Assembly: GCA_044892525.1 (NCBI GenBank)
Contig: CM097888.1
Location: forward strand, 90,644,001 to 90,708,000
DNA: 64,000 nt
Source of the DNA: Schmidtea polychroa
Taxonomy: Eukaryota
Direction: 5' to 3'
Every line of letters starts with the position of its first letter. Positions within the stretch are counted from its first letter, which is position 1. Positions 1 through 57,822 of the stretch are shown here, piece by piece. The notes beneath the pieces are model-generated. The model worked only from the letters and a program-made list of their open reading frames with translations. It was not told the DNA's origin and did no database searches. The translations under genes were made by a program, and so were the position numbers.

Positions 1-1039
1 TAGGGTCGTATGGTAGGTAATATTGGGGGATTTGAGCTCTCAATTCATTAATTTCGTCTCTTAGAGCTCGAGTGATGTTCAATTCCTCGTCGAGCAGATA
101 GGTGAGATACCTTGTCTCTTCGTCTTTCGCCTCTATCTGTTTGTCTAGGGCCTTGATTTTCTCGTCGCCCTTCCATTTTTCAATTTCTATTTCTAAGTTT
201 TTAATATTTTCGGTGTACATTTTCCTTTCGTTTTCTAATTTTCTGTTTTTTCCCGCTAGGACCATGTTTCTTTGTTCCAGCGATCCTTGTAATCCATTAA
301 GGTCTCTTTTCATCTCTTCTACCTGATTTACTAATTCCACAACCCGTCCTGCTTGTTGGGTTATCATCTCTTCCATTGCGGCATTCTCGTGCTCTCTTAT
401 GTCGCACTTCATTGCCAAATGTCGCTCAAACTCCATAGCCTTTGTTTGCCAGGTTTGGCTTCGGGCGGCGACCTTTCTCAACCTTTTCAATTCTTCCTTT
501 ATTATTAAATTCTCCTCCCATTTACCTTGTTCGCTTTCATATCCGAGTCTCATGGGCAATTCTTTCATCTCTTTTTTCATTTCTCTGTTTTGTCTTTTCC
601 ATTTTCTCGCTTCTGCCACTAAGTGCATCATTTTCCTGTCTTCTATTTGTTTTTCCGCTTCGCGCTTGGTGTTCTCATCGGTAAGTCTTTTTCTCGCTTC
701 CTGCACTAGCTGCTTTAAGTAGTGGCTGTGTGCTTCTTGGCGGGTATTTTCTAGTGACGCCCATTTTGATGCTCTTTTGCATGCTTCTGCTTCCGCTCTT
801 AAGTTGTGTATTAACCATTGGTATTGACTATTCTCATCTTCTCTAGTTTCTTCGATGTGATTTCGGGTGAGATTAGTTAGTTGGAACATTACTTTGTTCC
901 ATTTTTTATTATGTTCTCGGGGAATTTGTGTCTTGTTGACATTGGTTGGGGCTATCGCAGTTTCGGTTATTTTCTCTTGTGTCATCTCTAAATCATAGAC
1001 ATCGATTAATCTTTTTATTATGAAAAGGAATTTATTCAT
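1..1039 (-). CDS. Long coiled-coil accessory ORF (MNKFLFIIKRLIDVYDLEMTQEK...), open at the window edge
   Basis: Manual translation gives ~346 stop-free codons from ATG at 1039 to the edge. It is E/K/R-rich and heptad-like, and is absent from the ORF track because it has no stop in the window. Confidence 0.8.
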   Translation of the reverse strand, partial: MNKFLFIIKRLIDVYDLEMTQEKITETAIAPTNVNKTQIPREHNKKWNKVMFQLTNLTRNHIEETREDENSQYQWLIHNLRAEAEACKRASKWASLENTRQEAHSHYLKQLVQEARKRLTDENTKREAEKQIEDRKMMHLVAEARKWKRQNREMKKEMKELPMRLGYESEQGKWEENLIIKEELKRLRKVAARSQTWQTKAMEFERHLAMKCDIREHENAAMEEMITQQAGRVVELVNQVEEMKRDLNGLQGSLEQRNMVLAGKNRKLENERKMYTENIKNLEIEIEKWKGDEKIKALDKQIEAKDEETRYLTYLLDEELNITRALRDEINELRAQIPQYYLPYDP

Positions 1040-1177
1040 TATTTACTGTTTCTTGGGAAATTTTCGCATCATTTTTGGGTTTTCGTATTTAGGGTTTTCA
1101 TACTATTATTATATAATATTTTATTGGTTATATACACCGATATATACAGATTATTATATACAACATTATTCGATTGG

Positions 1178-2566
1178 TTACTCCGTTCTACCCTTCTCCT
1201 CTTTCCTCACGGTCATCTTGATATATATGGTATCATTTCTCGCCATATCTTCTACTCTTTGTTGTGAGATGAACGTAGGTGCTCCTGTTGCTGATCCTTC
1301 TTCGTTGAGGGGCCTCTGGTAAGCTATTTGATTCCCCGTTGTTTTGAAGCTTTGCTCATGTATACTTTGGTTGTTCATCAGAGTAATATCGATTTTTGCC
1401 TGGAACGGCCATTCTAATATTTCGTCGTATTCTCCTTTACATAACAGAAAGAAAATCGAAAAGTGCGTATCCAATCCGGTTCCGTCCCCGTTGGGATATA
1501 CCTTCATTTTCATTTTGTACCCATTTTTCCAAGAATGGAATGTAGGACTTGTTATTCTTGTCTCTTCTCCGGTTTTTGCTTTTCGTATTCTTTCTTTTAC
1601 TCCCGTTATTTTCCATATGTAGGGTGCTGTTGGGGTTATCTCATTTAGATTTATTTCCCGTATTTTCTGATGTAGCTCCTTGGCCTGATTATTACTGATT
1701 TCTGTTCGGTTTATTTGCATCTTTATGTTTGCTCGGGCTTCTTCGAACGCTTCCCTTTCTTCTAGTAGTTCTTTGACTAACACTTTCAACGATGTTATCT
1801 CTATCTCCATTTGTTTTACTTTCTCTTCGCTTTCTTGTAGCGCAGTCGACCACATTTCTGCGTGAGTTGAAGCATTTTCTACTAAATGATGTGGTAACTC
1901 ACCTCGGTGTAGTAGTTTCTGACAACCCCATCTACCTAGTACACATGTCATTCTTTTCTTTGCGCATTCCCTTAGATGCTGTGCCACCTTCATTATTTCC
2001 CCTTGGTTACATCCGTTTGGGCATTCCCCACTGAACTCTGCACATACTCTCTCCTCTTGGACATTGTGATGTTTGAGGGTGAGATTTATCCACGTATCTA
2101 TTTCTCCACAGTGTTCACATCTTTCCAATCTCTCTTCACACTGCCTTTGATGTTCTTTTTCTTCGCTTGCTCGAATGGTTTTATGGCACCTTTCACACTG
2201 GCCAATTCTGTACATACATTCTCCCATATGTTGTACTACCTTCCATATTACTCCTTTCCATTCGCATGGGGCATTTTTGCATCCCAGGTTGGTGTTTAAC
2301 ATGTCTTTCACTGCGGCTTTATCCTCGTTAGTGTCTTCTAAACTCGATATTAGTGTCTCTTTACACACCGGGCACCTCTGTGGTCTATTCTTTATTGCTT
2401 CACTGATACATTCTTTACATACTCTGCATCCACATTGCGTTTGGTGAGGTTCCTTTAACAACTTTTCACATATTCCGCACATAACATGTTTGTGTATTCT
2501 GATCGTTGTAGATTTTCGGACTTGCTCGACAATCTCTCTGAACTCTTCTCTTTGTCGTTTATCCAT
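1178..2566 (-). CDS. TRAF-family protein (RING, TRAF zinc fingers, coiled coil, MATH)
   Basis: CGIC...CGCRVCKEC...CPVC RING, CxxC/H zinc fingers, and MATH motifs WKI, GYKMKMKVYPNGDG, HFSIFF, WPF. Intronless and inside the retroelement. Confidence 0.92.
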   Translation of the reverse strand: MDKRQREEFREIVEQVRKSTTIRIHKHVMCGICEKLLKEPHQTQCGCRVCKECISEAIKNRPQRCPVCKETLISSLEDTNEDKAAVKDMLNTNLGCKNAPCEWKGVIWKVVQHMGECMYRIGQCERCHKTIRASEEKEHQRQCEERLERCEHCGEIDTWINLTLKHHNVQEERVCAEFSGECPNGCNQGEIMKVAQHLRECAKKRMTCVLGRWGCQKLLHRGELPHHLVENASTHAEMWSTALQESEEKVKQMEIEITSLKVLVKELLEEREAFEEARANIKMQINRTEISNNQAKELHQKIREINLNEITPTAPYIWKITGVKERIRKAKTGEETRITSPTFHSWKNGYKMKMKVYPNGDGTGLDTHFSIFFLLCKGEYDEILEWPFQAKIDITLMNNQSIHEQSFKTTGNQIAYQRPLNEEGSATGAPTFISQQRVEDMARNDTIYIKMTVRKEEKGRTE

Positions 2567-2651
2567 TCTATAATTATATGTACAAATAGTTCTTATCGAT
2601 ACAGGTTCGATATTTTATTTACAATTATTTACATTTTAAGCTAGGTTTGGT

Positions 2652-3035: not shown

Positions 3036-3171
3036 CTCTTATGTAAATTTAATTTTATTTTATGATTCCCGTTATTGTATAATATTGATACCGCGCTTAT
3101 ATAGAGATATGGTACTGTTATATACATAAGATATACTTACTTTTTACAATTATATACAGTCATATTCCTTT

Positions 3172-4700
3172 CTATATACGTGAGTTTGGAGGGCGCTGAA
3201 CGTTCCAGGCCTCCACCCACTGTCCTTGTTTGATATCACTTGGTCGTTTCACTCGATGTTGGAAGTTTCTGATTCGGGTCATTTCTAGTTCTCCGCGATG
3301 TCGTTTATCTTTAATTATTTTTATTGTTCCCCCCGTTATGATTAGGAATGCCCCTGTTATTATTATCCCACTGATCCACATCATCTGCTTCACGCTTATA
3401 CTCTCTGGTTTTTCCTTGTTTGTTAATGTTGATATCGCTTCTGTACTTTTCTCGTTTCCTCTTTTGCCATTTCCTTTCATCATTTCCCGTATTCTTGCTA
3501 TTTCCTCGTTCATACCCTCCTTTGCCATCTTTTGTATTTTTTCCATCTCTTCCTCCGAAACATAGTTGTCCTGAGCTTCCTCACCAGTTTTCTTGTGCTT
3601 TCCTCCTTCGTTCTTTTCGTCGTGGTTTTTTCTTTTCTTTCCTCTTTTCCCCGGGTATCGTCGGCATTCTCTTTTTGATTCAATCCTCCAGATACAAACC
3701 GTGTATTCTTTCGGCGGCTGCTGCTGCGTCACATATTGATGGCATCTCTCACCTGGTCCTAATCTTGAAATACAGACTTTGTGCTCTTTTCTAGGTTGGA
3801 TCTGCGTTATTACTACTTCACCACCTTTTCCTAGGTGTACCTCTTTTCCTTTGACGTTCGTTATTCTCTTCCCGTCTCGATTTCTCACATCCCGGCTGAG
3901 CCCCCAAAAATCATGTTGGGGTCACACCTCGGCTGACCATTCTACCATGTTGGCGGGTCTAAGGGTTGATTGTCCATCTCGAATAAAAGGTGCCACCGAT
4001 TTGTCAACCTGGAGTGAAACCCCACATAACTTTCTTCCAACATAGTGCCCGTGAATCACTTCACGTTGGTACTGCACTATGCAGGCGAGACGCCAGCAAG
4101 CAGGTGAGCTTCTGCCTTAAAACTACTCCTTGCTGAGGCTTCGACTTCCCATTCACGACTGCCGATAGAAGGGCTTACGTCCATTTCCTTACACAACCAC
4201 CTATCAGGATTCGCTGAATGCAAATTGGGAAATTCTCACTAGATCTTGCGGGTTCTCTACTCAACCCACTTAATTAAAGTCTAATTATTCATGAACGAAA
4301 ACGTGTAAGACAACAAGATTTATTAATTTCAACGTTATGACACAAGGATTCAGCTGTACACTTTACTAATGTTTGTCGAAAGAAGAGAAAACATCATAAT
4401 CAACATAGATCGGATCCTTGTTCCTCATCCTGACCGCCACTGGGGTTTTATTGTTTCTCCCATTCAGTGTCGGCGAATAATTCGTCGAGGTTGAAAAACT
4501 CGGAAGCGTTCTCTTCCCACCTTGATTTCGGTATGCTTCTTGTATTCTTACTTCTGTTATTGGTTCTGTGTCCTCATTTATCAGTACTAATTTCTGATAC
4601 GCTCTAGACATGCATCTTCCTAGTATGCACTTTTCCTTTAAGTCCCATTCTTCCTTTAAATCCCACTGCTGCTCTTGTGCTTGCTTTCTCTTTTCTTGTT
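3172..4700 (-). pseudogene. Single-pass membrane protein ORF split by a 639-bp insertion and 5'-truncated by deletion
   Basis: Removing 3885-4523 plus one GAAATC copy rejoins ...IQEAYRN|RDGKRITNVKG in frame. There is a hydrophobic segment MWISGIIITGAFLIITGG near the C-terminus. Confidence 0.8.
3885..4523 (-). mobile_element. Inserted copy of LTR 3' end + PBS (strong-stop-like cDNA) with 6-bp target duplication
   Basis: 3889-4523 matches 16530-17164 (635 bp, one mismatch seen, 4140 vs 16781). gatttc is present at both 3879-3884 and 4524-4529. Confidence 0.88.
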
Positions 4701-7700
4701 TTTGCAATTCCTGCATAATTTTTGATAAATTTGCGATAGTATCCGCATAATCCTAGAAATTCCTGAACTTGGGTGACAGTTTTCGGTGCTGGACATGTTT
4801 TTATTTTCTCAATGTTTCTTGGATCTGGCTCCTTTCCTTTAGCTGACACTATGTGTCCTAAAAACGTGACTTTTTCCTTTGCCCAATCGCATTTTGATGG
4901 TTTGAGTTTGAGTTTCCACTGTCTTAATCTAATAAATACGTTTCGGATATCTTCTAGATGTTGTTCAAATGTCGCTGAATAGATTAGTAAATCATCAATA
5001 TATACCATACATTGTTTGATTCCATGGGTGACAAAGTTCATACACCGTTGAAATGATGCTGGTGCGTTAGTCAGTCCAAATGGCATTTTCCTGAATTGAT
5101 ATAGATCTCGTCCCAACGTGAAAGCTGTTTTCTCTTTGTCCTCATCTTTGACTTTAATCTGCCAGTATCCACTTTTTAGATCTAAAGAAGTAAAATATGC
5201 TGCCCCTTGCAACATCAATAACATCTCATTGATGTCTGGCAATGGATAGGTATCTCTCTTGGTCACTGCGTTTAACTTCCGATAATCGATACAGAATCGT
5301 TGGGTGCCATCTTTCTTTTTCACCATGACCACTGGGAATTGCCAGGGTGAGCAACTTGGTTCGATTACTTTTGCGTCTAGCATCTTTTGTACTTCTGTTT
5401 CGGCTATTTCTTTCTGCATTTCTGCTAGCTTGTATGGTCTCAATGCAATTGGGGTTTCGTCTATGAGTGGTATTGCATGTAAGGTAACATCACATGTACC
5501 CAAGTCTAAATCTGAGATGGCGAATATATCTTTATATTCTACCAACAATCGGTGCAATTTTTTCTTTTCGTCATTCGTCAACAACATACTATCTATTGTC
5601 CATAATTCATCATCTTTGATCATCTCGTTGGTCACTTTCGGTAATTCTATGTCCATCATTGGGGTCAATCTTCCCAATTTTTCGTTCTCATAAATGATTT
5701 TGTCTTCCTCTTCGAAATTCGTGATGTTGAGCGGTATCACTCCTTCTTGGTTTATTGTGATTATTTCTCTTGCGAGTGGTAATTCTCGTCGCTTTTCAAA
5801 TGACTTGCTTGGTTCAAAGATAACTTCTCCTTCCATACCCGTATCCACTTTTATCTGACAAATCATCTGTGATTTTGCTGGTACTATTATTTTTTCTGGA
5901 CATCTGATGACTGAATTCATTTTGCATATTCTACCGGTTTTGTCTTTTAAGCACATGGTTGTTAAGTCAATTACGACTTCCTTTAACAATTCTGGCATCA
6001 AATCCGTTCCGATTATGCATGGTACGCTAAGTTTTGGTATTACTGCCAAATACGTTTCAATTTCGTTGTCCTGGTATCTCAATGTAGTCCACCATCTTCC
6101 GACCACGTCCACTGTTTCTTTACTACATGCTATGATGTGAATTGTTGTTGATTCGATATCCTTCCAGTGTTTACTGGGGATTTGATTAATCGCTATCGCT
6201 GATACATTAGCTCCGGTGTCTATCATAGCATTGGTTTCTTTACCATTGATTTGAATCATAACTGTTACTGCTGGACCTCCAGGTAAACTCATCGCTGCTA
6301 TTGTTCTTACGTCATCTGCTTGATCTACACTTTTGGTACGTCGTGTTGGCATATAATGCATACCGGGTTGACTCGGTAATTGCGGATACATATTTTGTGT
6401 CATGGTCAAAGCTGTTTGTGGTCCCACGATATCCGGTGGTATATAGCTTCCATTGGCGATCGAGGTGTTTGTCTTTTCCTTTTCCCAATATGGTGCCGTT
6501 TCCATTGGTTTTTCGTTTGGGTTTCTGTTTGGATAAAGACATTTATCGTTCCCGTTATCATCGTCGTCACTATCGCTGTTAGATGATTGGCTTCTAAATC
6601 GGTCCAAGAATTTTGGCTTATTCTTTTTCAATTGTCGTCTTGTTGCTTCATCGTACATTACTTTCCGGAATCGTCTGCCTACTTCCTCGTCGGTTCCTTT
6701 AATCTTTGTTAATATTTTAATCAATCGCTTTATCCGATGAATGTCTTTTGAGTGGCCATGTAATACCATGGTCTTAGCTAAAAATGGTAAGAAACCTACT
6801 ATCATTTTCCAATTAACTTTCTTTTCCCGCTTGTATATATCGAAACAAGCTAACATTTGTGTTAGTATTACTCTGACTATCTGAATTATGAGTATGATCC
6901 CTAATATCCCGGCCATCATTTGTCCAAAAACTAAGAATCTTCCCCACATTGCTTTCATCATGTTTGACGTAGCTTGTTGAAAATGGTCTGGCGATAATAG
7001 CAGCTCGTAATTCGGGCCTGATTGATAGTTTGTGCCCCCAGTTATTGTTACCATATTAGACAAAATGGATTCTCGTCTGGCTGGGAAGAGTACGTTAAGT
7101 CGTGCTGTTTCTAGATCTTCTGGGGAATACATACCACCGTTTGACACGTCTATAGGTTTGAAATCCAGCTCTGTGGCGAGTTCTATTAATCCAAATTTCT
7201 TGGGCTCCTCGGATATGGTTTTTCCCGGTAACATCATCCATTTCCCATCGGGCCTTTCATATAAAGGTCCGTATGCATTAGAACAGTTAAAGAGATTTGG
7301 GTAGAAACCCACTGGATTCATAATTCTAGTGACTGGTTGGACGAATCGATTTTGTCCTTTATAACGGATTTCTAATTCATTTGCACATCTCTTTTCGGGT
7401 AGTATGGATTTTTCTGGCATTCGTGCATACGTCTTGGTACACTGGTATGTGTACATCACTTCTCCTACCATTCTACCAAAGTGTCCATCTGGTAATGGGA
7501 GTGATGGCATCGTGTTATCTGGGTGCGTTATCGCAATAGCTAGCTTTGTTTTCAATATTTCTTTATTCAATGAACAATCGTTTTGTATTAGATCGTAATA
7601 TACTTTTTGCAAGGTCGTTTGTCCGCGATGAAATAGAAAATCCATTTTATTATTTGCATATAAGTATAGTTTTACGTCCTCCGTTGCTATCTTTCCCACT

Positions 7701-10700
7701 GCTCTATCGATTATTTGTCTCGACATATAGATACCTGCGTAGTTGGTTTTATATACTATACTGTCACATTTGGTGGTTTCTTTCTCTTTGATAAATCTCA
7801 TACCTAGATCTGGATCGTCTGTGATTAATGCTGTTGGTGTCTTCTGCGTTGAAAGTCTCTTTTCTCTGGGAGATGGTGGCATTGGTTTTCCATTTCGCAT
7901 TCTCACTCTGTCGTTTCCATCCTCGTCGTTCTCGTTCTCATATATTTCTCCTTTTACTTCATTGAACAAAGCACTTTTTAACAGTTGGAGTCGGCATTTT
8001 TGGGTATTAGCTTCATAGATTATAGTTGATACTCCTGTCCTGCATACGTTTTCTGTAGCTCTACACGTTGGGTTGGTCTTCATTTGGTAATTATTTGCGT
8101 CAAATTGCGCTTCGTATTCTTTTAATTCGACCGTGTAAGACTCGATCACTACAACTCCCGATATTACCTCGCCTCGGATCGTATACGTACCTCCGTTACA
8201 TGACCCATCTGATGATTTTACTTTTCCGGATACGTAAACACTTTCGGTTTTAATCATTCCAGTTTGTCCGTGAATTGTCACTCCGTTATGCATTTTTAGC
8301 GCTCCGGTTCTAAATAGCTCTTTACAATCCTCTCGTTGTATTGATACGATTTCTTTATCCAGACCGGGTAGTATAAGAGTCGAATACGAATATTGTCCAC
8401 AGTAATATGCGAGTACCTTTTTTGATACTACGCATTCCCTTGCTTGCGTTCTGATGAAATCTGATTCTTGATATACATGGTAAGTAACTTTTGTTCTCAC
8501 GATGTCCAATTTGTTGGGTGAGGCTTGTCTGCATTCTTCTATGTCTCTCAATGAGTATTTATCTCTCATTATCATGTTATCACAATCGTAGATGGTGAAA
8601 CCTGTTGCTCCACTTGTGCACAACATCCATATCATCATAGTCATCATTAACGAATTTATTGATGCTTTTCTGCTTGCGGGATCTTTCATCGGTAGTTCCC
8701 ATTCTAGTTCATTTAACAGTTTTTTCAATCTAACTTGCATCGACCTTTCTTGCTCATTTTTCCGTGGCGCTTGTATCAGTCTTTTCCATCCTCCTGCACG
8801 AATAATGTGTGGTTCAATAGTATTCTCTATGATTGAAACGGTCATTTCTACATGATTTGCAAACTGTTTATTTGGTATTTTCCTCGCAGCTAGTCCCATC
8901 AAATTATACATCAAATAAGTGATTACCACTAGGTGATGCTCGTCATCATTTGCATTTGTCGTGAGCTGCTCAATCACTCTCTTTGTTTCGTCCCAATCCG
9001 TTTTGGTGGTTTTCGTTTTCTCTTTGATTAACTTTGGGATTATCCCCGAAATGGTGTGCCATAATTGTCTAGCTTCCGTACTGGCTACTTTCCGTTGCCA
9101 CAGACGTCTAAGTTGTGGGTTTGTTATTATTAACATATCTTTTAACAATTCTCGTATCCATTTTTCTCCTCTTTCGATCGTTGGTTGGGCTTCCTTTAGA
9201 TCCCATACTATTTTATCCAATTTTTCTAATCGAACTTGCCCTTGTTCTTGCTTTAATTGTTCTTTGGTTTTGAACTCAGACTTTTCTCCTTGTTTCTTGG
9301 GTCTTCCTTTTGCCCGTTTTTCCATCATCGTTCCTGCTTCTCTGGTATTTTCGTAATTCGGATTTCTTTCGTTATCCGTTCTGGGTAATGAGCTATCGTT
9401 ATTTCTTAGCCACTCATTCCATTCGTCTATTATTTTGTCGGTTTGACTTTCTGGTGTTACTTTCGTTGGTTCTCTTTGCTTCTGGAATTGTTCATCCGTT
9501 TCGGTTTCCGTAGTATTGTCGATGATTTCTTCGATGTTCAGTTTCGTTGGTTGTTGATAACTCGTTGATGGCTGGTTATTAGTCCACATTTCGGCTCCTG
9601 TCGGCCATCTCACTAATAGCGGTGATCTTTCTCCTGGTTCATCGTCACTATCTTCCAGGATTATCTCTTCAACTTCTTCAGTTTCATTAGATTTACTTGG
9701 TGCTTTGTTCGGACTTGGAGTACTCAAACTGCCTTTTGTTGGTTTAATAATTTTACTTTTCCTTTTTAACGGTTTTCCCAACGTTTCTGCCATTGTTAAT
9801 ACATTTGTCTCTTCCAATCTCATGGGGGTTATCCCGACGTCTGCATTATCGTCTAGTGATTTTCCGAACAGTTGCAGATGGAATGGAGTTTCATATGCTA
9901 ATTTCTTTTTTAATTCTCTAATTTTTGTTGTTGGATGCACCTCTAGTTCCTCGATGCTCTTGTCTGGATACTTGATTCGGATGTGATACCTCTCCTGGGT
10001 GTCTTGTGCCCATTCCTGATTTCTCCATTTTCGAATAATTTGTTCTAGCTGTTCTGGATACCATTCATTATATTGCCGGTATTCCTCTATTGCCTTTGCC
10101 ATTCCTCTCAGATTGTGGATGTCCTCTGATGTCTTTAAGATGATGTTAGCCAACGCTACTACTTGGCGTCTTTGATTTTTCGCTCCCATTGCTAAGATAT
10201 CGCCTAATTGTTTATATCTTTCTTTCTCTTCTCGTTCTCTTGCTTCCGTCGCTTCCTCGCCGTCCATATCAGCATATTCACGTTCCTTTTTCCTCATTGC
10301 ATGAATATGTCTCGCTTCATTTTCGCTTTCTGATGTGACATCCGTCTCGCCTTCGTCATCTGATGTCTGTTCCCTTGCTTCCTCTTCATATTTTGGAGGT
10401 TCCTCTTCTTCTTCCTCCGATTCACTTTCTGTCTCACCAATGTCTGTTTCCACGAAGGTTCCTTTCCGGATTTCCCATTCCTTACTTTCTGCATTCCACA
10501 CTCTTTCCCATGGGGTTCGTCTGCAGGATCTGGTGCTTAATTTCGTGATTTTTCCTTGTAGTTCTTTTTCTTTTAACCATTGTTGGTGGATTTTAATTAT
10601 TTCCGTAGATTTTTGATATAACGTTTTCATCCGGTCTCGTATTTCTTTTTGATAGGTTACATCTCTTGTTCGAAATTCATCCATTGGTACTATCCTGATT

Positions 10701-13450
10701 ATCTGGTGATTGTCCCACATACCCATTTCGCTTAACGAGGTGTCGTCCTCCGCTCGTAATATTATCTTATCGTACATCATGACTACATCATCCACCATAC
10801 CATCACTACTTTCGCTACGTACCTTTTCCGTTATCTCTTGGTTTATTTTTGATACCAAGTCATCCACTGTACTCTGATTGCTCATTTTTATTCGTCGTTT
10901 TTCTTCGTTCGGTAACCATATGGTTATTTCCAACCTCTGTGGCTGGGTTTCTTTTAACCTTCCATATTTGTGGATCAAATTTATGGTTCTCCAATCACTC
11001 ATTCGGAGCATTTCTGTATCTCGCAACCGGCTCATTAGTTCGTACATGGCTGGGGCTCGTCTGGTGATGAGTAAATCCCAGTTGTCTTCTACTTGTTCTT
11101 GAATTTGTTTGATCAGCTTATCCAGGTTTCGTCTCAGAGTACATTGTTTTATTTGTTCTAATTTCAATTTGATATTAAAATCATATTCGGCCTTGGCATC
11201 TTTAGCCCAATCGTAAAGGTTGGCTGGTTGTTTTTCTTTATGCAACTTCAGTATTTGCGTTTCCCCTGGCCATATTAGTGCATCTACTAAGTGCATATCT
11301 GGTTTGATCTGTTCTCCTTGGTATTGATACAGATATTCTTTCTTTCTCGAACTTCCCAAATGCTCTCGTATCCAATCGAAAAGTTCGTCGGTGACTGTAT
11401 TTTTTATCCACATTCTTTCAAGTCCTCTACTCGTTCCGATTTTTATTACATACCGCGTGGTATCGGCCTGCTTCATTTTTTCCATATAATTTTTTATAAT
11501 TGATTTTTCCTCGTTTGGTATTAAATCTTTCTCGTTTCTTTCCAATTTCATCACTTTTTGCACGAATCGCCTGAATGGTATTACGTCAATGAACTCTTGG
11601 TTCCTCACTACTACTGGGAGTATTTCCGCTACTTGTTTTATCGCTTCCTCCTTCCCTTTTCTCAACTTTATTTCGATATCCTCGTCTTCACTTTCGCTGG
11701 TTATCTCGCTTTCGCCTTCTTCCTCTTTGATTTCCCCTTTTGGAGGTTCGCTTATTTCATTCAGCTGTAGTATTTCTCCACCCAAACTACTTACATAGTC
11801 TTCTTCCTCGTCTGACGATGCTACATCTTTTGTCCTTTTCATCATATTGATTTGCAAGTTTCTCATCCTTGGTACTCTCTTTAGTTTCTTTCTTTCGAAT
11901 ATCGTTGTTTCTTCTGATTCTAATTCCTGTAGCATTTGGTGGTTTAGTTGACTGGTTTGTTCCTTGCTCTTGTTATTTTCATCTTCTGTCTCGGCTTTCG
12001 CTTTATTATGTTCTTTTTCGATTTTATCTTTTATCTTTTTCCAGAATATTTTCTGAATTCTCTGGTTTCCTTTTAAAATCGTGGTTGAATTCTCTGTTTT
12101 CATTTCCGTTGTTATTTCTTTTACCTTTTCTGGTTCAGTCATGGGTACTACCCTTGGGCTTTTCCCGTAATTGTAGCAATACTGGCTCTTCATGTCTTTT
12201 ACTAACTTCATCATATTTATTCGCAATGGTTGTTCTTGTCGTTGTTGGTTGCGTTCTTGTTTTATCCTCTCTTCCTCGGCCTGTAGCCTTTGCCATTCTT
12301 GTACATGTTGATGCACTTCATAATTGTTGAGATTTTCGGTACTCCTCATCATACGTATATTCTGGGTTTGTTGTGGTGCTGATTCTTGTCTTGGTCTCAT
12401 CATTTGTTGCATCATCTGTTTCATCTGCGAAATTTCCTGCATAACGTTCATTTGTTTTCCTTCGTTAGGGTTACTTTGTCGTTGCGGATTCGCTATATAA
12501 TTATTATTTCGCTGTGGTGGTCGTTGTTGTTGGCCCCTTTCTCGGCAATCTCTGGAGATGTGACCTGGCTGACCACAGTCAAAACAGCCTCGCAATTGGC
12601 ATACATTTTCGGTATGTCCACGCCGTCCGCAACGATTACAATTTGAATTTCTATAACAATCTCTGTCCCAGTGTCCTGGTTTACCGCATGTTCGGCACTG
12701 CTTGTTATCGTTCATATTTCGTCGATTATTGAAATTGTTCTCATTATTCGGGTTGTTACGATTACCATTATTCCCGTTTGATCGTCCTTGTGGTGGTTTG
12801 AAAATTTGGTGCGCTCCTGGTATAAATTGATTCATTTTCGGTTCTTGATTGTTGTTATCTCCGTTATCCGCTTTCGCTATTGCTGTCGCTATCCTTCCCT
12901 CCTCTTGCATAATATTCATTTGAGCTGGAAGGTGGAGCTCGCATCTTGTAGCCCAATCTATGGCTTCCTCTAATGTTTTGCACATTTGACAACCTACTGA
13001 GGCTCTTACTTCTTCTCGGCGTAATCCCTCTATGAAATAACCGATCAGATTTTCTTCGGGTAATTTTCCATTCATTGCTTTCTTCGCTAATCTCCGCAAT
13101 TCACTGGCATATAATGTTATCGATTCGTTTGCTCTTTGTTTCCTATTTGCTAGTTCGCCCAACGCCTGGTTGATTGGCTTACTGGCTCCGAAGGTTTTCT
13201 TCAGGAATGTTTTAATATCTTCCCACTTTTCTAATTTCGTGTCTCTCTCTTTAGCTTCTAAATATACCTCTAATGCACTATCGCACAAAAACAACGGCAT
13301 CCTTTTACTAATGGCTTCGGGTGTCCATCCACACACAGTGATATAAACTTCAAAATTAGTTATGAACGATGCTAGCTTGTTTGCGTTTCCGTTGAAAGGT
13401 TCTCCTCTGAACTTCTCTTTATACTCGTCGGTTTTTACGACATTCGTCAT
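4604..13450 (-). CDS. 2948-aa polyprotein Gag-Ubl x3-Bcl2-like-glycoprotein-PR-RT (RT truncated near 4700; last ~32 aa are junction read-through)
   Basis: Single ORF. CCHC x3 at ~12545-12700, DTGA at 6209-6220, YIDD at 4991-5002. RT similarity stops at KNYAGIAK. Confidence 0.93.
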   Translation of the reverse strand: MTNVVKTDEYKEKFRGEPFNGNANKLASFITNFEVYITVCGWTPEAISKRMPLFLCDSALEVYLEAKERDTKLEKWEDIKTFLKKTFGASKPINQALGELANRKQRANESITLYASELRRLAKKAMNGKLPEENLIGYFIEGLRREEVRASVGCQMCKTLEEAIDWATRCELHLPAQMNIMQEEGRIATAIAKADNGDNNNQEPKMNQFIPGAHQIFKPPQGRSNGNNGNRNNPNNENNFNNRRNMNDNKQCRTCGKPGHWDRDCYRNSNCNRCGRRGHTENVCQLRGCFDCGQPGHISRDCRERGQQQRPPQRNNNYIANPQRQSNPNEGKQMNVMQEISQMKQMMQQMMRPRQESAPQQTQNIRMMRSTENLNNYEVHQHVQEWQRLQAEEERIKQERNQQRQEQPLRINMMKLVKDMKSQYCYNYGKSPRVVPMTEPEKVKEITTEMKTENSTTILKGNQRIQKIFWKKIKDKIEKEHNKAKAETEDENNKSKEQTSQLNHQMLQELESEETTIFERKKLKRVPRMRNLQINMMKRTKDVASSDEEEDYVSSLGGEILQLNEISEPPKGEIKEEEGESEITSESEDEDIEIKLRKGKEEAIKQVAEILPVVVRNQEFIDVIPFRRFVQKVMKLERNEKDLIPNEEKSIIKNYMEKMKQADTTRYVIKIGTSRGLERMWIKNTVTDELFDWIREHLGSSRKKEYLYQYQGEQIKPDMHLVDALIWPGETQILKLHKEKQPANLYDWAKDAKAEYDFNIKLKLEQIKQCTLRRNLDKLIKQIQEQVEDNWDLLITRRAPAMYELMSRLRDTEMLRMSDWRTINLIHKYGRLKETQPQRLEITIWLPNEEKRRIKMSNQSTVDDLVSKINQEITEKVRSESSDGMVDDVVMMYDKIILRAEDDTSLSEMGMWDNHQIIRIVPMDEFRTRDVTYQKEIRDRMKTLYQKSTEIIKIHQQWLKEKELQGKITKLSTRSCRRTPWERVWNAESKEWEIRKGTFVETDIGETESESEEEEEEPPKYEEEAREQTSDDEGETDVTSESENEARHIHAMRKKEREYADMDGEEATEAREREEKERYKQLGDILAMGAKNQRRQVVALANIILKTSEDIHNLRGMAKAIEEYRQYNEWYPEQLEQIIRKWRNQEWAQDTQERYHIRIKYPDKSIEELEVHPTTKIRELKKKLAYETPFHLQLFGKSLDDNADVGITPMRLEETNVLTMAETLGKPLKRKSKIIKPTKGSLSTPSPNKAPSKSNETEEVEEIILEDSDDEPGERSPLLVRWPTGAEMWTNNQPSTSYQQPTKLNIEEIIDNTTETETDEQFQKQREPTKVTPESQTDKIIDEWNEWLRNNDSSLPRTDNERNPNYENTREAGTMMEKRAKGRPKKQGEKSEFKTKEQLKQEQGQVRLEKLDKIVWDLKEAQPTIERGEKWIRELLKDMLIITNPQLRRLWQRKVASTEARQLWHTISGIIPKLIKEKTKTTKTDWDETKRVIEQLTTNANDDEHHLVVITYLMYNLMGLAARKIPNKQFANHVEMTVSIIENTIEPHIIRAGGWKRLIQAPRKNEQERSMQVRLKKLLNELEWELPMKDPASRKASINSLMMTMMIWMLCTSGATGFTIYDCDNMIMRDKYSLRDIEECRQASPNKLDIVRTKVTYHVYQESDFIRTQARECVVSKKVLAYYCGQYSYSTLILPGLDKEIVSIQREDCKELFRTGALKMHNGVTIHGQTGMIKTESVYVSGKVKSSDGSCNGGTYTIRGEVISGVVVIESYTVELKEYEAQFDANNYQMKTNPTCRATENVCRTGVSTIIYEANTQKCRLQLLKSALFNEVKGEIYENENDEDGNDRVRMRNGKPMPPSPREKRLSTQKTPTALITDDPDLGMRFIKEKETTKCDSIVYKTNYAGIYMSRQIIDRAVGKIATEDVKLYLYANNKMDFLFHRGQTTLQKVYYDLIQNDCSLNKEILKTKLAIAITHPDNTMPSLPLPDGHFGRMVGEVMYTYQCTKTYARMPEKSILPEKRCANELEIRYKGQNRFVQPVTRIMNPVGFYPNLFNCSNAYGPLYERPDGKWMMLPGKTISEEPKKFGLIELATELDFKPIDVSNGGMYSPEDLETARLNVLFPARRESILSNMVTITGGTNYQSGPNYELLLSPDHFQQATSNMMKAMWGRFLVFGQMMAGILGIILIIQIVRVILTQMLACFDIYKREKKVNWKMIVGFLPFLAKTMVLHGHSKDIHRIKRLIKILTKIKGTDEEVGRRFRKVMYDEATRRQLKKNKPKFLDRFRSQSSNSDSDDDDNGNDKCLYPNRNPNEKPMETAPYWEKEKTNTSIANGSYIPPDIVGPQTALTMTQNMYPQLPSQPGMHYMPTRRTKSVDQADDVRTIAAMSLPGGPAVTVMIQINGKETNAMIDTGANVSAIAINQIPSKHWKDIESTTIHIIACSKETVDVVGRWWTTLRYQDNEIETYLAVIPKLSVPCIIGTDLMPELLKEVVIDLTTMCLKDKTGRICKMNSVIRCPEKIIVPAKSQMICQIKVDTGMEGEVIFEPSKSFEKRRELPLAREIITINQEGVIPLNITNFEEEDKIIYENEKLGRLTPMMDIELPKVTNEMIKDDELWTIDSMLLTNDEKKKLHRLLVEYKDIFAISDLDLGTCDVTLHAIPLIDETPIALRPYKLAEMQKEIAETEVQKMLDAKVIEPSCSPWQFPVVMVKKKDGTQRFCIDYRKLNAVTKRDTYPLPDINEMLLMLQGAAYFTSLDLKSGYWQIKVKDEDKEKTAFTLGRDLYQFRKMPFGLTNAPASFQRCMNFVTHGIKQCMVYIDDLLIYSATFEQHLEDIRNVFIRLRQWKLKLKPSKCDWAKEKVTFLGHIVSAKGKEPDPRNIEKIKTCPAPKTVTQVQEFLGLCGYYRKFIKNYAGIAKTRKEKASTRAAVGFKGRMGLKGKVHTRKMHV
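4700..6290 (-). other. Aspartic protease and reverse transcriptase
   Basis: AMIDTGANVS; PWQFPVVMVKKKDG, RFCIDYRKLN, LDLKSGYWQI, MPFGLTNAPASFQR, VYIDDLLIYS. Confidence 0.95.
6760..8660 (-). other. Chuvirus-like envelope glycoprotein with internal signal peptide and C-terminal TM
   Basis: Hydrophobic MMTMMIWMLCTSGATG then FTIYDC...SL...EC, YCG.YS, C..L..TG, DGSC.GG.Y and WGRF..FG..MAGILG TM. This cysteine/motif spacing is typical of chuviral G proteins as I recall them. Confidence 0.8.
8770..9200 (-). other. Bcl-2-like helical domain
   Basis: Ends in a BH2-like motif IENTIEPHIIRAGGWKRL (compare L..WI...GGW..F). The BH1 region is divergent (no NWGR). Confidence 0.6.
9785..11460 (-). other. Three dispersed ubiquitin-like (beta-grasp) domains in the polyprotein
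   Basis: Three ~75-85-aa blocks (~11460-11240, ~10935-10685, ~9990-9785) with a Ubl pattern (alternating hydrophobic strands, TV/IxxLxxKI helix, L.y/f.G..L.D...L). Pattern recognition only. Confidence 0.6.
12540..13450 (-). other. Gag capsid + three CCHC zinc knuckles
   Basis: CRTCGKPGHWDRDC, CNRCGRRGHTENVC and CFDCGQPGHISRDC, preceded by a retrotransposon-Gag-like region (QRANESITLYASELRRLAKKA). Confidence 0.9.
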
Positions 13451-14716
13451 GATTGGTGTTCTAGGTTCGTCTGTTTCTTTTAAATTGTCTAACGATGTGA
13501 CTAAACTTTGGGCTGATAACTCCTCGGTTGACGTTGCTAAACTATTAGTGATATCGGACAGACTTTCTCTACTTCGAGATCGACTAGGGGTATATCCGAG
13601 ATTTTCTTGGTCAAATATGGGTACTTGATTGGTTCTTCTGGATCCTTGTGATATTCCTCTTTGATGTTTAATGGATCGTCCTCTTTTGAGTTGTTGTAAT
13701 TCGTCTCCTGAAAATAATACGTCTCCTGGCTTACTAGAAGATCTAAGATTGGGTTTATCCGTGATTCCTTTCTTACGCTTCTTGGTAATTAGCGGCTATT
13801 GAATTGGACGCGTTCGGTTCTGATTGTGTTTCCTTCGATAAATATTCTGTATGAATCTGCTACTGAGATCTTCTTCCGTTCTGGAGTCTTCCGGTTGCTG
13901 TGTCTCTCGGTGCGGGTTCTGAATGGATTTATCCTTGGTTGATTGTCGATTTCTTCGAATTCCTTTTGTGCAGGTTCTGGATTGTCTTGGTTGGCTGGAT
14001 TGGCTTGATATCTAAAATGAAAAAATGATCTCGTGTTGCATTTGCTTACACGACTTCATCATTCTTTCTACAACATTCAAAAACAGACGCCTTTTAGGTT
14101 TCTGTTTGTGCTTCCCCTATCTTTTTGTGAAATCCTTTCTGCGGGTTATAATATCCCATCAGCCCGTATTTTCCGTCGATTTTAAATTATCTATCTGGGG
14201 TAGTAACAATTATCTATAAAGTCGTAGTAATTATCTATTCGTTATCAATTATAGTAAAAATAGGTCGTTGTCAGTCTCTGCTTATTACCCCCCTTCGTTT
14301 TCTTATTCCTTTGCGCTGTTGTCGCTGTTTTACTTTTCGTATTTACTATTATCCCACTCGGTTCTACTCTGGAACCGGTACAAATACATTTTCCCGGTTT
14401 ACCCCAAAAAAAATTCCGTAGAGTTTCTCTACTTCACTGGGATCCCTTTAATTAGTTAGTTACTTTCCTCTTTACTCATTATCATCATTTCATCTATTCT
14501 TTATTTTCTATTATCTCTTTAATTCGTTTCCTTCTTCCCTTTCCTTTTTCATTATAATCTTATTTTCTTTTCCACGAGCTCGTTTATTTCCTCTCTAAAC
14601 TCGAATTTTCAAAATTACATTCAATTTGTTCTAGCTAGCTTTAATATTCCATATCACTAGTAATTTAAATATTATCTCATTGTAGCTTAACTGCTATCTC
14701 TCGCTTTTCTAGGCCT

Positions 14717-15123
14717 TTACGACTGGCTGGCACTATTCAACAGCTCAATCTTCCTCCTTCCTGATCGGTTGGACTTTTCACAACTCGACCTTACGACTGG
14801 CTGGCACTATTCAACAGCTCAATCTTCTTCCTTCTGATCGGTTGGACTATTCAACAACTCGATCTTACGACTGGCTGGCACTATTCAACAGCTCAATCTT
14901 CCTCCTTCCTGATCGGTTGGACTTTTCACAACTCGACCTTACGACTGGCTGGCACTATTCAACAGCTCAATCTTCTTCCTTCTGATCGGTTGGACTATTC
15001 AACAACTCGATCTTACGACTGGCTGGCACTATTCAACAGCTCAATCTTCCTCCTTCCTGATCGGTTGGACTTTTCACAACTCGACCTTACGACTGGCTGG
15101 CACTATTCAACAGCTCAATCTTC
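14717..15123. repeat. 74-bp tandem array, 5.5 units, alternating A/B variants
   Basis: ttacgactggctggcactattcaacagctcaatcttc recurs at 14717, 14791, 14865, 14939, 15013 and 15087. Confidence 0.97.
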
Positions 15124-15495
15124 AATATTCCTCGCTCTGCATGCTTCTATTTCTCTTTTCTTCTTTTACTCTAGTTTACCATTTTCTCTGTCTACTTTTA
15201 ATTTGTCGACTTAATCTTTACCGCTTGGGAGTGTTTCCCCTTTCCCCCCTTGCTCAAAACGCACGACGATCGCGATGATCCATTTCTACCTTGGCATGGT
15301 GATCAGTCATGTCGCAAAAACTTCTCATCATATGCGATGGTACCCCGCCCTACGCTTCTTACTTGGGTTGATCAGTTATCCCCTCCCAACGGGTTCTTGC
15401 AATAAGACGTACCGCTCGAAGGTGGCTCGGTTTGTACCCCTGCAGTCTATATTGGGACTAATTCCACGTTATTCAACCCTCTCTTCATTTGATTC

Positions 15496-15726: not shown

Positions 15727-16212
15727 TCATTCGCCATAATAGACCATATGGGTCTCTTTTATTTCATATTTGCACATCGTGCATCTTTTTAGGTCTTTTA
15801 CACACTCTTCACAGTGACTGAGGTGTCCACACGGCAAGAATAATACGCGAATAGGACGGAGTTTGCAGGCTATACAAGTTCGTAATTGGTTAACTTTTTC
15901 CTGTATTTTTTGTTCGATTGCATCTGGTATTGTATTTAGTGAGTCTTTTAGACGCTGATAATCTAGATTTAATGTTGGGTGGTTCAATCTCTCTTGATAC
16001 CACTGATATACGGTTTCGGGGTTTATTTTTCCATCTGGGCGACTTAGGCCTGTGGCTAATATCATATGATTAGGTACGACTGGTGTTTGTCCGATTGCTT
16101 GCAGTAATATCGCGTTGATTTTTTCTCTTTTATGCGTCAGTGTTGTTAGGGAGTCGTTTTCTATATCGATAAACTTGAGCAGTTGTTGCATTTGGTTCGC
16201 GAATTCTGTCAT
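15727..16212 (-). CDS. C-terminal C3HC4 RING protein (IAP/MDM2-type RING), no BIR domain seen
   Basis: CIAC...IRVLFLPCGHLSHCEEC...LKRCTMCKYEI at the extreme C-terminus. First ORF after the PBS. Confidence 0.85.
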   Translation of the reverse strand: MTEFANQMQQLLKFIDIENDSLTTLTHKREKINAILLQAIGQTPVVPNHMILATGLSRPDGKINPETVYQWYQERLNHPTLNLDYQRLKDSLNTIPDAIEQKIQEKVNQLRTCIACKLRPIRVLFLPCGHLSHCEECVKDLKRCTMCKYEIKETHMVYYGE

Positions 16213-16529
16213 AGCTGTTGGAAAAGTAATGTTTTAATAATATGTAGTAAATTAATAGTTAATTCGTTAATTGGTTTCTTTAACCATTGTTAATTATTTA
16301 ATTTGACTACTTTATCTCCTTTATTTATATATATCCTTAATTTTTCTATTATCTACATTTTGATTTTCTCTACTTAGTTCCTAATATAATTTAATAATCA
16401 ATAGTCACTTTGCATTCGTCAAGCAATGGTCGGTTGAAAATAGAAAATCGATGTGATAAATCCCTTTAATTTTGTATGAAACTCCCGGTGAATTTCGCAT
16501 TCGTTAATAGAAATTTCGATCGACTGTAG

Positions 16530-16547
16530 ATCCCGGCTGAGCCCCCA
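16530..16547 (-). promoter_or_regulatory. Primer-binding site complementary to tRNA-Pro 3' end
   Basis: TGGGGGCTCAGCCGGGAT vs canonical Pro PBS TGGGGGCTCGTCCGGGAT (16/18), located 7 nt after the LTR-terminal AACA. Confidence 0.88.
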
Positions 16548-17088
16548 AAAATCATGTTGGGGTCACACCTCGGCTGACCATTCTACCATGTTGGCGGGTC
16601 TAAGGGTTGATTGTCCATCTCGAATAAAAGGTGCCACCGATTTGTCAACCTGGAGTGAAACCCCACATAACTTTCTTCCAACATAGTGCCCGTGAATCAC
16701 TTCACGTTGGTACTGCACTATGCAGGCGAGACGCCAGCAAGCAGGTGAGCTTCTGCCTTAAAACTACTCCTTGCTGAGGCCTCGACTTCCCATTCACGAC
16801 TGCCGATAGAAGGGCTTACGTCCATTTCCTTACACAACCACCTATCAGGATTCGCTGAATGCAAATTGGGAAATTCTCACTAGATCTTGCGGGTTCTCTA
16901 CTCAACCCACTTAATTAAAGTCTAATTATTCATGAACGAAAACGTGTAAGACAACAAGATTTATTAATTTCAACGTTATGACACAAGGATTCAGCTGTAC
17001 ACTTTACTAATGTTTGTCGAAAGAAGAGAAAACATCATAATCAACATAGATCGGATCCTTGTTCCTCATCCTGACCGCCACTGGGGTT

Positions 17089-17877
17089 TTATTGTTTCTC
17101 CCATTCAGTGTCGGCGAATAATTCGTCGAGGTTGAAAAACTCGGAAGCGTTCTCTTCCCACCTTACGCCAGCGGCTGATATGATTCGCGCTGAGGGTCCC
17201 GTTGTTAGGTCGATGGACACGTGAGAGTTGCCACCGTTGGTTGAGTCCTCTATTGATGGGATGTTTGGCTTTGCAGTAGCGCGCTCGCGCTGTCTCTTCT
17301 TGCGCTCTGCACGAGAGAGTTGTTTGCGCTTGGGTTTGCTTGAAGATGCCACTTGCAGACGGGTGACTGATACAGATGGACTAGCAGTGGGGGGCTTACT
17401 GGTACCCGTGATGACAACATCTGGACGCTTGGGGGACCATTCGGTTTCGACGCAGTCTCGGCACGGTCTCTTGAACGGTGGAGATGGATTCGAGGAAAGG
17501 TTGTGATGAGGCGGAAAGATGTCATCGGCCTCTCGGATGGGAATCTGCACGATTTTTCGGGTTGTAGCCGCCTGCACGTAAACCTTATGCAGTGCCTCGG
17601 ATTGTTCTCTGATTAGACTTCTTTGGGCACGGCTCTCAGATATTAGCGCGTCCCGGCAATGCTCGCTACGATCGAGCTTCTTTTGGATCTCTTTCATCCG
17701 AGCGGGACTAAACCATGTCCCTTCCAGCTCGTCTATCTTCCTCTTGTAACGTCCAATCTGAGTTTGTAGGTCCTTTATCACCGTATTTTTATCCGCGCAC
17801 GAGAAGCACGGCCGTAATGCTGATTTAGTGGTTGGTAGCATGCTTGCTATAAATAATACTAATGAAATGGGGAACAT
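17089..17877 (-). CDS. LTR-encoded 262-aa protein of unknown function (CxxC, coiled coil, basic arm, acidic tail)
   Basis: Intact ORF clearly paralogous to 39165-39923 (LRPC.SCADKN, EGTWFSP..MKE, EHCRD.L..ESR.QR, QSEALHKVY). Confidence 0.85.
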   Translation of the reverse strand: MFPISLVLFIASMLPTTKSALRPCFSCADKNTVIKDLQTQIGRYKRKIDELEGTWFSPARMKEIQKKLDRSEHCRDALISESRAQRSLIREQSEALHKVYVQAATTRKIVQIPIREADDIFPPHHNLSSNPSPPFKRPCRDCVETEWSPKRPDVVITGTSKPPTASPSVSVTRLQVASSSKPKRKQLSRAERKKRQRERATAKPNIPSIEDSTNGGNSHVSIDLTTGPSARIISAAGVRWEENASEFFNLDELFADTEWEKQ

Positions 17878-17959
17878 ACGATTTTAGAATAAATTAGATA
17901 CGACCCGCGTCCATTCGTGGATACTTGACCGTCGAAAAGAAGGAAAACTTATTCTACAA

Positions 17960-31980: not shown

Positions 31981-31992
31981 TATAAGTTTTTT
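31950..31992 (-). promoter_or_regulatory. Predicted -1 ribosomal frameshift signal (A AAA AAC + pseudoknot)
   Basis: The heptamer is in Gag phase and -1 gives the Pol frame. After a 6-nt spacer come TGCC/GGCA and CCACTTCT/AGAGGTGG stems. Confidence 0.75.
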
Positions 31993-44264: not shown

Positions 44265-44622
44265 AAATCGCCATTCGTACATCTTTTTCACTCTATGTTT
44301 CGATAGCATCACAATCATCATCATCAGGATACCTACATTTACATCGGATTTAGTTATGTTAAATAATTAAAAAAAATAATTAAAATAATATTTTTTAAAT
44401 AATTTTTAAAAGTTTAAATATAATTGATTATTGAAAATTATTTTTAAAAAAATAATTGTTTAAAAATTTTTATTTATAATTTAAAATTTATAGATTTTAT
44501 AATTTATTTATATATTATCAATATAATATAGTTATTCATCCCTGGTGAATGTAGGTAACCTGATGATGATGATTGTGATGCTATCGAAATATATAGTGAA
44601 AAAGATGTACGAATGGCGATTT
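44265..44622. repeat. Foldback element with ~75-bp arms carrying degenerate hammerhead motifs
   Basis: 44265-44339 is the reverse complement of 44548-44622; the arms contain CCTGATGATGA...ATCGAAA.ATA..GTGAAAA. Confidence 0.75.
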
Positions 44623-57661: not shown

Positions 57662-57700
57662 CACGATATATTTCGATAGTTTTCCTGTCATCATCAGGTG
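57662..57700 (-). ncRNA. Minimal hammerhead motif (intact core, one stem II mismatch)
   Basis: CAC CTGATGA T GACAG GAAAA CTATC GAAA TATAT C GTG. Confidence 0.6.
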
Positions 57701-57783
57701 GGATATAATAACTCATTAAATTAAGGATTTTAAACAAATTTATTAATTATATAAAATCCTTAATTTCCATAGTTATTATATCC

Positions 57784-57822
57784 CACCTGATGATGACAGG
57801 AAAACTGTCAAAATATATCGTG
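57784..57822 (+). ncRNA. Minimal hammerhead motif (perfect stem II, G12->A)
   Basis: CAC CTGATGA T GACAG GAAAA CTGTC AAAA TATAT C GTG. Confidence 0.55.

Follow-up and report, generated by a model that had tools for sequence, protein, structure and literature searches.

The 64,000-nucleotide stretch analysed here (the window; Schmidtea polychroa, contig CM097888.1, positions 90,644,001 to 90,708,000) carries a Burro-type Ty3/gypsy element of about 30 kb with multi-kb LTRs, which is young and present in many copies. Its 3' LTR lies to the left of the window (G000:C4:90638259-90642103) and is 99.92% identical to the 5' LTR, and the element is flanked by a 4-bp target duplication, ATAA. The features are listed below along the direction of the element, with residue numbers counted along the polyprotein frame.

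16555..20399, minus strand: 5' LTR, 3,845 bp, with ends TGTTGGG...CCCAACA, from comparison of the LTR pair
17089..17883, minus strand: 264-codon frame within the LTR, without a family match
16530..16547, minus strand: primer-binding-site-like 18-mer just inside the LTR, which we take to resemble a tRNA-Pro site
15727..16233, minus strand: accessory frame with a RING finger at its C-terminus (PF13920, E 4e-11)
14717..15160, no strand assigned: 74-bp tandem repeats in the leader, differing in copy number among element copies
4604..13795, minus strand: polyprotein frame
12545..13297, minus strand: Gag, with a capsid domain (13297-13016) and three CCHC knuckles (12697-12545)
9791..11458, minus strand: up to three ubiquitin-like domains, from weak matches (ubiquitin E 0.13, RA_2 E 0.03, PI3K_rbd E 0.07) with boundaries set by eye
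8771..9148, minus strand: Bcl-2-like domain (E 0.03) with a BH2-like GGW motif, directly upstream of the Env signal
8600..8650, minus strand: internal signal peptide (aa 1716-1732), predicted to be cut after A-T-G and before FTIYDC
6950..8599, minus strand: class III fusion ectodomain (aa 1733-2282) of chuvirus/Monjiviricetes type with an HSV-gB fold, from Pfam and a structure model
6863..6949, minus strand: membrane-proximal helix and transmembrane anchor (anchor aa 2293-2311, 6919-6863)
6761..6817, minus strand: second hydrophobic stretch (aa 2327-2345), family-wide, broken by Gly/Pro and here flanked by basic residues
6377..6391, minus strand: MYPQL in the Env tail, which can be read as a YPxL late-domain-like motif or as YxxL for sorting; it is over-represented among the tails of the family
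5987..6262, minus strand: aspartic protease (DTG)
4847..5323, minus strand: reverse transcriptase core (YIDD)
4690..4700, minus strand: junction of a deletion of about 4.2 kb, from comparison with other copies
3889..4523, minus strand: inserted 635-bp copy of the LTR 3' end and primer-binding site, 99.8% identical to 16530-17164
3172..3921, minus strand: remnant of the last polyprotein module, with a transmembrane segment at 3381-3316
1178..2614, minus strand: TRAF-like accessory frame (RING, coiled coil, MATH; MATH E 2e-27)
2..1042, minus strand: coiled-coil-rich accessory frame of 370 codons, continuing beyond the window; two further frames sit between it and the 3' LTR

The polyprotein frame comprises 3,063 codons counted from stop to stop, with the first Met at codon 116, the residue from which the sequence-only reading had numbered its glycoprotein (aa ~1600-2230). 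Along it follow Gag, ubiquitin-like and Bcl-2-like cargo, an internal signal peptide, the glycoprotein, one anchor, protease and RT, with some 1,300 residues of cargo separating Gag from the signal and no stop between Gag (aa 167-260), Env, protease (2512-2603) and RT (2825-2983). The stop-free run of a signal-like stretch, a Cys-rich ectodomain and a transmembrane segment upstream of PR-RT, as originally described, is thereby confirmed on the minus-strand frame. This copy ends just past RT because about 4.2 kb, encoding RNase H, integrase, ankyrin repeats (Ank_2 E 8e-18 in undeleted copies, downstream of integrase) and a second signal peptide, has been deleted at ~4696. The deletion is private to the window copy (1 of 40 scored matches shows it); an undeleted copy is about 29.8 kb long. 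Among 121 scored copies, 60 have a frame of exactly 4,732 codons and 64 one of at least 4,700, and a stop falls within the matched Env stretch in four. Most copies thus lack any stop or frameshift that would separate Env from Gag and Pol, and a 9,192-base open frame common to so many copies is not due to chance.

The proposal that the embedded glycoprotein is a chuvirus-like class III fusogen is supported by both profile and structure searches. The ectodomain, bounded by the signal and a transmembrane segment according to hydropathy and motif counts, contains 14 Cys and matches Pfam PF24664 (Monjiviricetes_fusion) with E 3e-70. Its model, a monomer with pLDDT 88, has chuvirus-like glycoproteins as its best matches in BFVD (E 7e-42, TM 0.53-0.65), and all matches listed from the PDB are herpesvirus gB (best E 7e-14), to which the sequence profile itself gives a weak match (E 9e-4). 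Across nine copies the ectodomain shows five synonymous variants and one replacement, and on these few variants (six sites) pN/pS is 0.06, the same as for PR-RT; Env is thus under purifying selection as strong as that on PR-RT. A virus insertion of Chuviridae was considered and rejected, as the neighbours are Gag, PR, RT, RH, IN and LTRs rather than nucleoprotein or L polymerase, and the glycoprotein is the only part related to Chuviridae.

Glycoproteins of Chuviridae/Jingchuvirales, of other Monjiviricetes (PF24664) and of the BEL-Pao "Anakin" elements (PMC7642597) share with the window Env the family, the fold, the xxAYDC-type start, the anchor with the second hydrophobic stretch, and a YPxL-rich tail. 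They are products of stand-alone genes with an N-terminal signal, 17-21% identical to it in the top structure alignments, whereas the signal of the window Env is internal. Capture of such glycoproteins is known mainly from arthropod BEL-Pao elements, but it is not confined to that group, since chuvirus-type glycoproteins adjoin gypsy pol in 114 arthropod elements (PMC13524379). Within the same genome, three other families (4,791; 3,053-3,058; and 3,334 codons), together with further relatives, carry Env in frame before the protease. These embedded Envs are 28-56% identical and fall in one old, deep clade that broadly tracks RT, and they give no support to the independent env acquisition initially suggested.

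Nor is the layout itself new. An Env encoded in frame after gag and before pol was published for Burro elements in 2019 (PMC6431247), and GAG-ENV-POL elements with gB-type glycoproteins are described from flatworms, nematodes and bryozoans (PMC13524379). Like the window element, Burro1/GYPSM1 and Burro-2 to -4 of Schmidtea mediterranea are about 30 kb long with multi-kb LTRs and one huge ORF, of 4,873 codons compared with 4,732 in the window family. They share with it a Gag with three CCHC knuckles, BCL-2, PR-RT-RH-IN and ankyrin repeats, RING and MATH in accessory genes, and an in-frame Env, there recognized by mononegavirus-type matches, between BCL-2 and protease (PMC6431247). Burro elements also have Ubl/SUMO-like and dUTPase-like domains; the window family gave weak Ubl matches (E 0.03-0.13) and, in the interval from protease to RT, no Pfam match. 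Identity with Burro1/GYPSM1 was nevertheless rejected: the main ORF of the window family lacks the MATH domain found inside Burro1 ORF1, a TRAF-like gene lies downstream, and the frames scanned gave neither a BIR match nor a BIR-RING (B-IAP) gene. The 4,791-codon sister family, with MATH in ORF1 and a BIR-RING gene, and 57% identical to the window family over aa 1190-3899, fits Burro1 better. The HSV/gB-type errantiviruses of PMC13524379 (Smed_errantivirus_1 to _6) likewise combine a Ty3/gypsy pol with a gB-type Env between Gag and Pol and are multi-copy in a flatworm host; none of their six printed Env domains is identical to the window Env, number 5 being nearest by eye. The Schmidtea Envs of this kind are assigned to cysteine-bridge class C1a, and the main text of that paper does not mention a polyprotein, Burro, Bcl-2, a late domain or fibronectin.

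How such a chain might be processed is suggested by the segments on either side of the ectodomain. Of 21 polyprotein-type sequences, 19 have small residues at -3/-1 ahead of xxAYDC, against 2.4 expected, and in stand-alone G proteins the same motif starts directly after the N-terminal signal. On the other side, the anchor is the most hydrophobic window in the whole protein. The second hydrophobic stretch, which the sequence-only reading had flagged as needing an explanation, is found in all 12 polyproteins scored and is costly to insert: when insertion costs are simply added up along the segment, rather than modelled by SignalP or DeepTMHMM, it scores +7.3 against -0.1 for the anchor in the window copy, with means of +6.4 against +0.6 in the 12 polyproteins and +5.2 against +1.6 in 31 others, although some stand-alone relatives go down to +1.4. 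The net charge is +2 before and +5 after it, and model confidence is low there (pLDDT 79 dropping to 43). Anchor and second stretch are together 93% identical between two families whose synonymous sites are saturated, a conservation like that of RT. The stretch is probably an interfacial cytosolic helix and not a second anchor. Further along the tail, YPxL occurs in 24 of 93 Env tails (2.9 expected); the strict motif is missing from the other 69 and from all three sister families.

Alphavirus and flavivirus structural polyproteins carry internal signals, and cuts by signal peptidase and a viral protease release their glycoproteins from one chain; they offer an analogy only, their fusogens being of class II and without homology to the window Env. 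In a comparable manner, we consider it likely (roughly three chances in four) that the polyprotein, with Env in one frame between Gag and protease, threads the ER and is cut by signal peptidase and the element protease, and the conserved site and probably interfacial second stretch support the cytosol-lumen-cytosol path first proposed. Gag-Ubl-Bcl-2 would be synthesised in the cytosol, after which the internal signal would start translocation and be cut at A-T-G/FTIYDC, so that mature Env would begin just as stand-alone chuvirus-type G proteins do, while the signal stub would perhaps keep the upstream precursor tethered. The anchor would then halt transfer and the second stretch would sit in the cytosolic leaflet, so that the tail and PR-RT-RH-IN would remain cytosolic. 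Cleavage by the protease would separate Pol from the tail of Env, and the YPxL motif in that tail may recruit ALIX/ESCRT or sorting adaptors. Undeleted copies would in addition send another protein to the surface by means of the second signal and anchor downstream of integrase. The proposed product is an enveloped particle or vesicle able to fuse with other cells. The window copy, lacking RNase H and integrase, would need both in trans. Equimolar synthesis of Gag, Env and Pol would follow from the single frame.

Perhaps, alternatively, Env no longer builds infectious particles and persists for a role at the cell surface or on vesicles, in interference, cell fusion or assembly anchoring, while the element moves inside cells only. 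Burro1 is reported, at second hand, to aid stem-cell survival, the element has host-modulating cargo, and the available passages of PMC6431247 and PMC13524379 contain no particle or transmission data. However, the ectodomain is complete, has 14 Cys and is modelled with confidence as class III, selection on it equals that on PR-RT, and the tail has a late-domain-like motif, so we regard this as unlikely; it is in any case compatible with ER threading, and both can hold together.

More doubtful still is that, despite the continuous DNA frame, most Env is translated from a shortened transcript, produced by splicing or from an internal start, or that early polyadenylation or frameshifting holds Pol down; in either case synthesis would not be equimolar. 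Other gypsy envs are made from spliced RNA, and the window signal is only moderately hydrophobic and rich in Met codons (aa 1717, 1718, 1720, 1721 and 1724), so that a shorter Env mRNA could take it as leader; in addition, the A-rich frame holds many AATAAA/ATTAAA hexamers, and two poly(T) loose ends, from one possible RNA run, fall at 9922 and 11490. Yet 10 of 14 relatives, read by eye, lack a Met upstream of the signal's hydrophobic core and would therefore be unable to use it in this way, the Env-to-protease interval has no slippery heptamer common to two families, and the 800 bases before the signal contain no pyrimidine-rich acceptor (weak evidence where introns are AT-rich). Four contig runs, none on record as RNA, gave no joints, which is a weak test.

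That the second stretch instead spans the membrane in part of the chains, on the model of the alphavirus E2-6K junction, sending Pol to the lumen or to degradation and lowering it relative to Env, is very unlikely: its RT-like conservation and presence in every polyprotein scored would suit such a role, as would gB-type ectodomains between two flanking transmembrane domains in some elements (PMC13524379; these may mean an N-terminal signal anchor), but its insertion cost, central Gly/Pro and following basic residues argue against it, a third span to return Pol before the protease is missing, and the same stretch occurs in stand-alone G proteins with no Pol to regulate.

Env-like genes of retroelements are usually separate, less abundant, 3' genes, and the in-frame Gag-Env-Pol layout departs from that rule, although its surprise is spent because it was published in 2019 and has since been extended to three phyla. 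What is still useful is a testable topology, with a conserved internal cleavage site, an RT-constrained interfacial tail helix, YPxL and a post-integrase second membrane protein, in a family that gives dozens of young copies in a likely tractable model animal. If borne out, this topology would show how a one-ORF retroelement assembles an enveloped particle. Neither YPxL in Env tails nor the second signal-plus-anchor protein after integrase is mentioned in the available passages of PMC6431247 and PMC13524379. It is tempting to speculate, albeit very tentatively, that the Burro-type elements of planarians are infectious retroviruses, with one polyprotein that crosses the ER four times and supplies two surface proteins at a fixed ratio: a fusogen like gB with an ESCRT late domain in its tail and, after integrase, a rapidly evolving FN3-like protein for attachment or as a decoy. 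If true, the two would form a two-protein entry system undescribed for retroelements.

Among the cargo, the Bcl-2-like domain was also compared with the PDB as a four-family profile, and all 60 matches listed are Bcl-2/Bcl-xL (best E 0.005).

The glycoprotein lies within a single minus-strand frame of 3,063 codons (window 4604-13795), in which Pfam places Retrotrans_gag (aa 167-260), CCHC knuckles, Monjiviricetes_fusion (PF24664, E 3e-70), a retroviral protease (PR) and a reverse transcriptase (RT), in that order. By hydropathy, aa 1716-1732 resemble a signal, aa 2293-2311 form the strongest hydrophobic segment (here called the anchor) and aa 2327-2345 a weaker one. The sequence-only reading had described a signal, ectodomain and transmembrane segment inside one ORF upstream of PR-RT, and both its description and its coordinates are correct.

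The glycoprotein (Env) had also been proposed to be chuvirus-like and of class III, and the family and structure searches bear this out. A HMMER search of 1.8 billion representatives returned 892 matches, the best of which were long polyproteins (28-40% identity), followed by stand-alone proteins of ~650 aa (~25%); all 24 of the matches scanned carried PF24664, and 10 also had a protease or RT match downstream. The AlphaFold2 model (mean pLDDT 88, alignment of 132 sequences) combines a long beta fusion module with a 48-residue central helix. In Foldseek searches, the top ranks in BFVD were chuvirus-like, qinvirus-like and xinmovirus glycoproteins (E 7e-42, TM 0.53-0.65 for the top four), and the top rank in PDB was herpesvirus gB (E 7e-14, TM ~0.4). 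By family and predicted fold, Env belongs with the class III fusogens of chuvirus/Monjiviricetes type; that it fuses membranes is a prediction. Among the related proteins, immunoglobulin domains precede a chuvirus-type glycoprotein in P0137, which is 1,000 aa long; five polyproteins (P0002, P0005, P0018, P0158 and P0161) have two or three aspartic-protease-like domains each, one of them after integrase; and P0008, a Gag-Env-Pol polyprotein filed under a Flavobacteriaceae bin, is probably misplaced animal DNA.

The arrangement is shared by other copies in the genome. Using the N-terminal half of Env as query, we scored 121 of 2,349 candidates (97-100% identity), the top-scoring ones and thus biased towards intact copies. 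The frame was exactly 4,732 codons in 60, at least 4,700 in 64 and at least 2,500 in 103; four have a stop within the matched Env stretch. Each of the four further copies that were read over long stretches has the 4,732-codon frame, which runs on past RT through RNase H (RH), integrase (IN) and ankyrin repeats, with TRAF-like and other accessory frames downstream; the full span is ~29.8 kb in one copy with both LTRs visible. Three further families (4,791, 3,053-3,058 and 3,334 codons) all encode, in one frame, Gag, a GGW-bearing Bcl-2-like domain, signal, Env, anchor and PR-RT-RH-IN. Copy pairs ~26 kb apart (G000:C2:177689696 and 177715908; C4:46246679 and 46272860, on two genome contigs) are spaced as expected of tandem elements with one common LTR.

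How would such a chain be threaded through the membrane? Signal peptidase favours small residues at -3 and -1. Stand-alone relatives have an N-terminal signal peptide followed directly by xxAYDC, so this motif likely marks the mature Env start; in polyproteins it follows the internal hydrophobic core, with small residues at -3 and -1 in 19 of 21 (2.4 expected; P0158, missed by the motif pattern, is excluded). By eye, Met is absent before the core in 10 of 14 relatives, so in these the signal must work internally. The second hydrophobic stretch follows the anchor in 12 of 12 polyproteins and nearly all of 31 other relatives scored, all of them relatives matching the anchor pattern, and is not peculiar to the window element, where basic residues flank it on both sides. 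On a membrane-insertion scale, a crude test, its cost exceeds that of the anchor by ~6 units in polyproteins and ~3.6 in other relatives. Hydropathy of the 3,063-codon frame gave no third span before the protease. Because the chain also contains RT and integrase, and the family is spreading, a single membrane span with an interfacial helix is the simplest interpretation. What speaks against it is the crudeness of the test, the low score of the second stretch in some stand-alone relatives, low enough for insertion, and the low confidence of the AlphaFold2 model at this stretch.

A second membrane protein seems to follow integrase:

L014:1133-1924, minus strand: second signal-plus-anchor module, found also at L041, L037 and L033 (other loci read)
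window 3316-3381: remnant of this module, of which the window copy keeps only the end

Ten of 12 polyproteins examined reach past integrase. Nine of these have another signal-like segment, followed by 200-400 residues and, close to the C-terminus, a segment that resembles an anchor (two were missed by the search pattern and read separately, one being only moderately hydrophobic); the tenth has the signal and an unclear anchor. The lumenal parts are barely alignable between polyproteins; an FN3 lead was confined to the sister families, and the 4,732-codon family gave no domain match. One sister-family tail ends in a PPxY-like motif. The last accessory frame (L011:8328-8996, minus strand, 222 codons) resembles a signal plus one anchor, found no family match, and is possibly a third membrane protein.

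Across nine copies, the Env ectodomain shows five synonymous variants and one replacement (pN/pS 0.06, small counts), and PR-RT shows 27 and six, giving the same ratio; the linker after the tail helix has one and five (small counts). Between the 4,732- and 4,791-codon families, identity is 56% in the ectodomain, 93-94% in the anchor and second stretch and 91% in RT, with equal synonymous divergence throughout. YPxL occurs in 24 of 93 Env tails (2.9 expected from shuffles, the sequences being related and not independent). The window element has MYPQL at aa 2469-2473; the strict motif was not found in the tails of the three sister families. We take it to be compatible with either an ALIX-type late domain or a sorting signal of the YxxL type.

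An independent acquisition of Env, as the sequence-only reading proposed, is not supported. In a midpoint-rooted 74-sequence tree (using 60 of the other sequences; four polyproteins removed by a length filter), embedded Envs and fragments form one clade apart from stand-alone proteins (FastTree support 0.997). For 12 elements, the Env tree and the RT tree agree on the well-supported pairs; where they disagree, the deep branches are weak. These trees, which do not address the donor, fit an old association of Env and element rather than a fresh capture.

One report describes gB-type elements of GAG-ENV-POL order from flatworms (six elements in S. mediterranea), nematodes and bryozoans, as well as chuvirus-like glycoproteins in 114 arthropod gypsy elements; its main text mentions neither late domains nor fibronectin (PMC13524379). 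Two others give a second-hand account of the role of Burro1's B-IAP and place Burro1 expression under PIWI control (PMC13465017, PMC8532177). One family of this genome matches the published Burro1 description, one pointer to a dugesiid planarian host, most likely Schmidtea. The window element is a real and well-supported Burro-type element, of a known kind, sister to Burro1 and possibly one of Burro-2 to -4. We found no publication on signal-peptidase processing of in-frame gypsy env and, for chuvirus late domains, only late domains of other viruses, a thin basis for absence from print. One chain would supply not only capsid and enzymes but also the fusogen and a further surface protein.

The window copy itself (26.1 kb, 4-bp target duplication) has 3,845-bp LTRs that, with neighbouring DNA examined, are 99.92% identical. 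It has lost ~4.2 kb after RT, a deletion whose junction is present in one of 40 scored matches. A 635-bp piece comprising an LTR end and primer site is inserted in pol at window 3889-4523, at GGGAAGAGAA microhomology, as would be expected if strong-stop DNA had undergone a template switch; the piece begins near 17164, a position that may mark where transcription of the element starts. Other features of the window are:

27103-35908, minus strand: second, unrelated gypsy element with identical 1,343-bp LTRs
31980-34727: its first ORF, with a clear ubiquitin domain (E 4e-9) followed by a capsid-like domain, DUF7041
28615-32004: its pol
51706-53340, plus strand: rhodopsin-family GPCR, a host gene in one open frame
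44265-44622, 57629-57855, 60176-60516 and 63660-64000: MITE-like pieces with inverted repeats, together with a duplication of 341 bp (99%) that extends past the window edge
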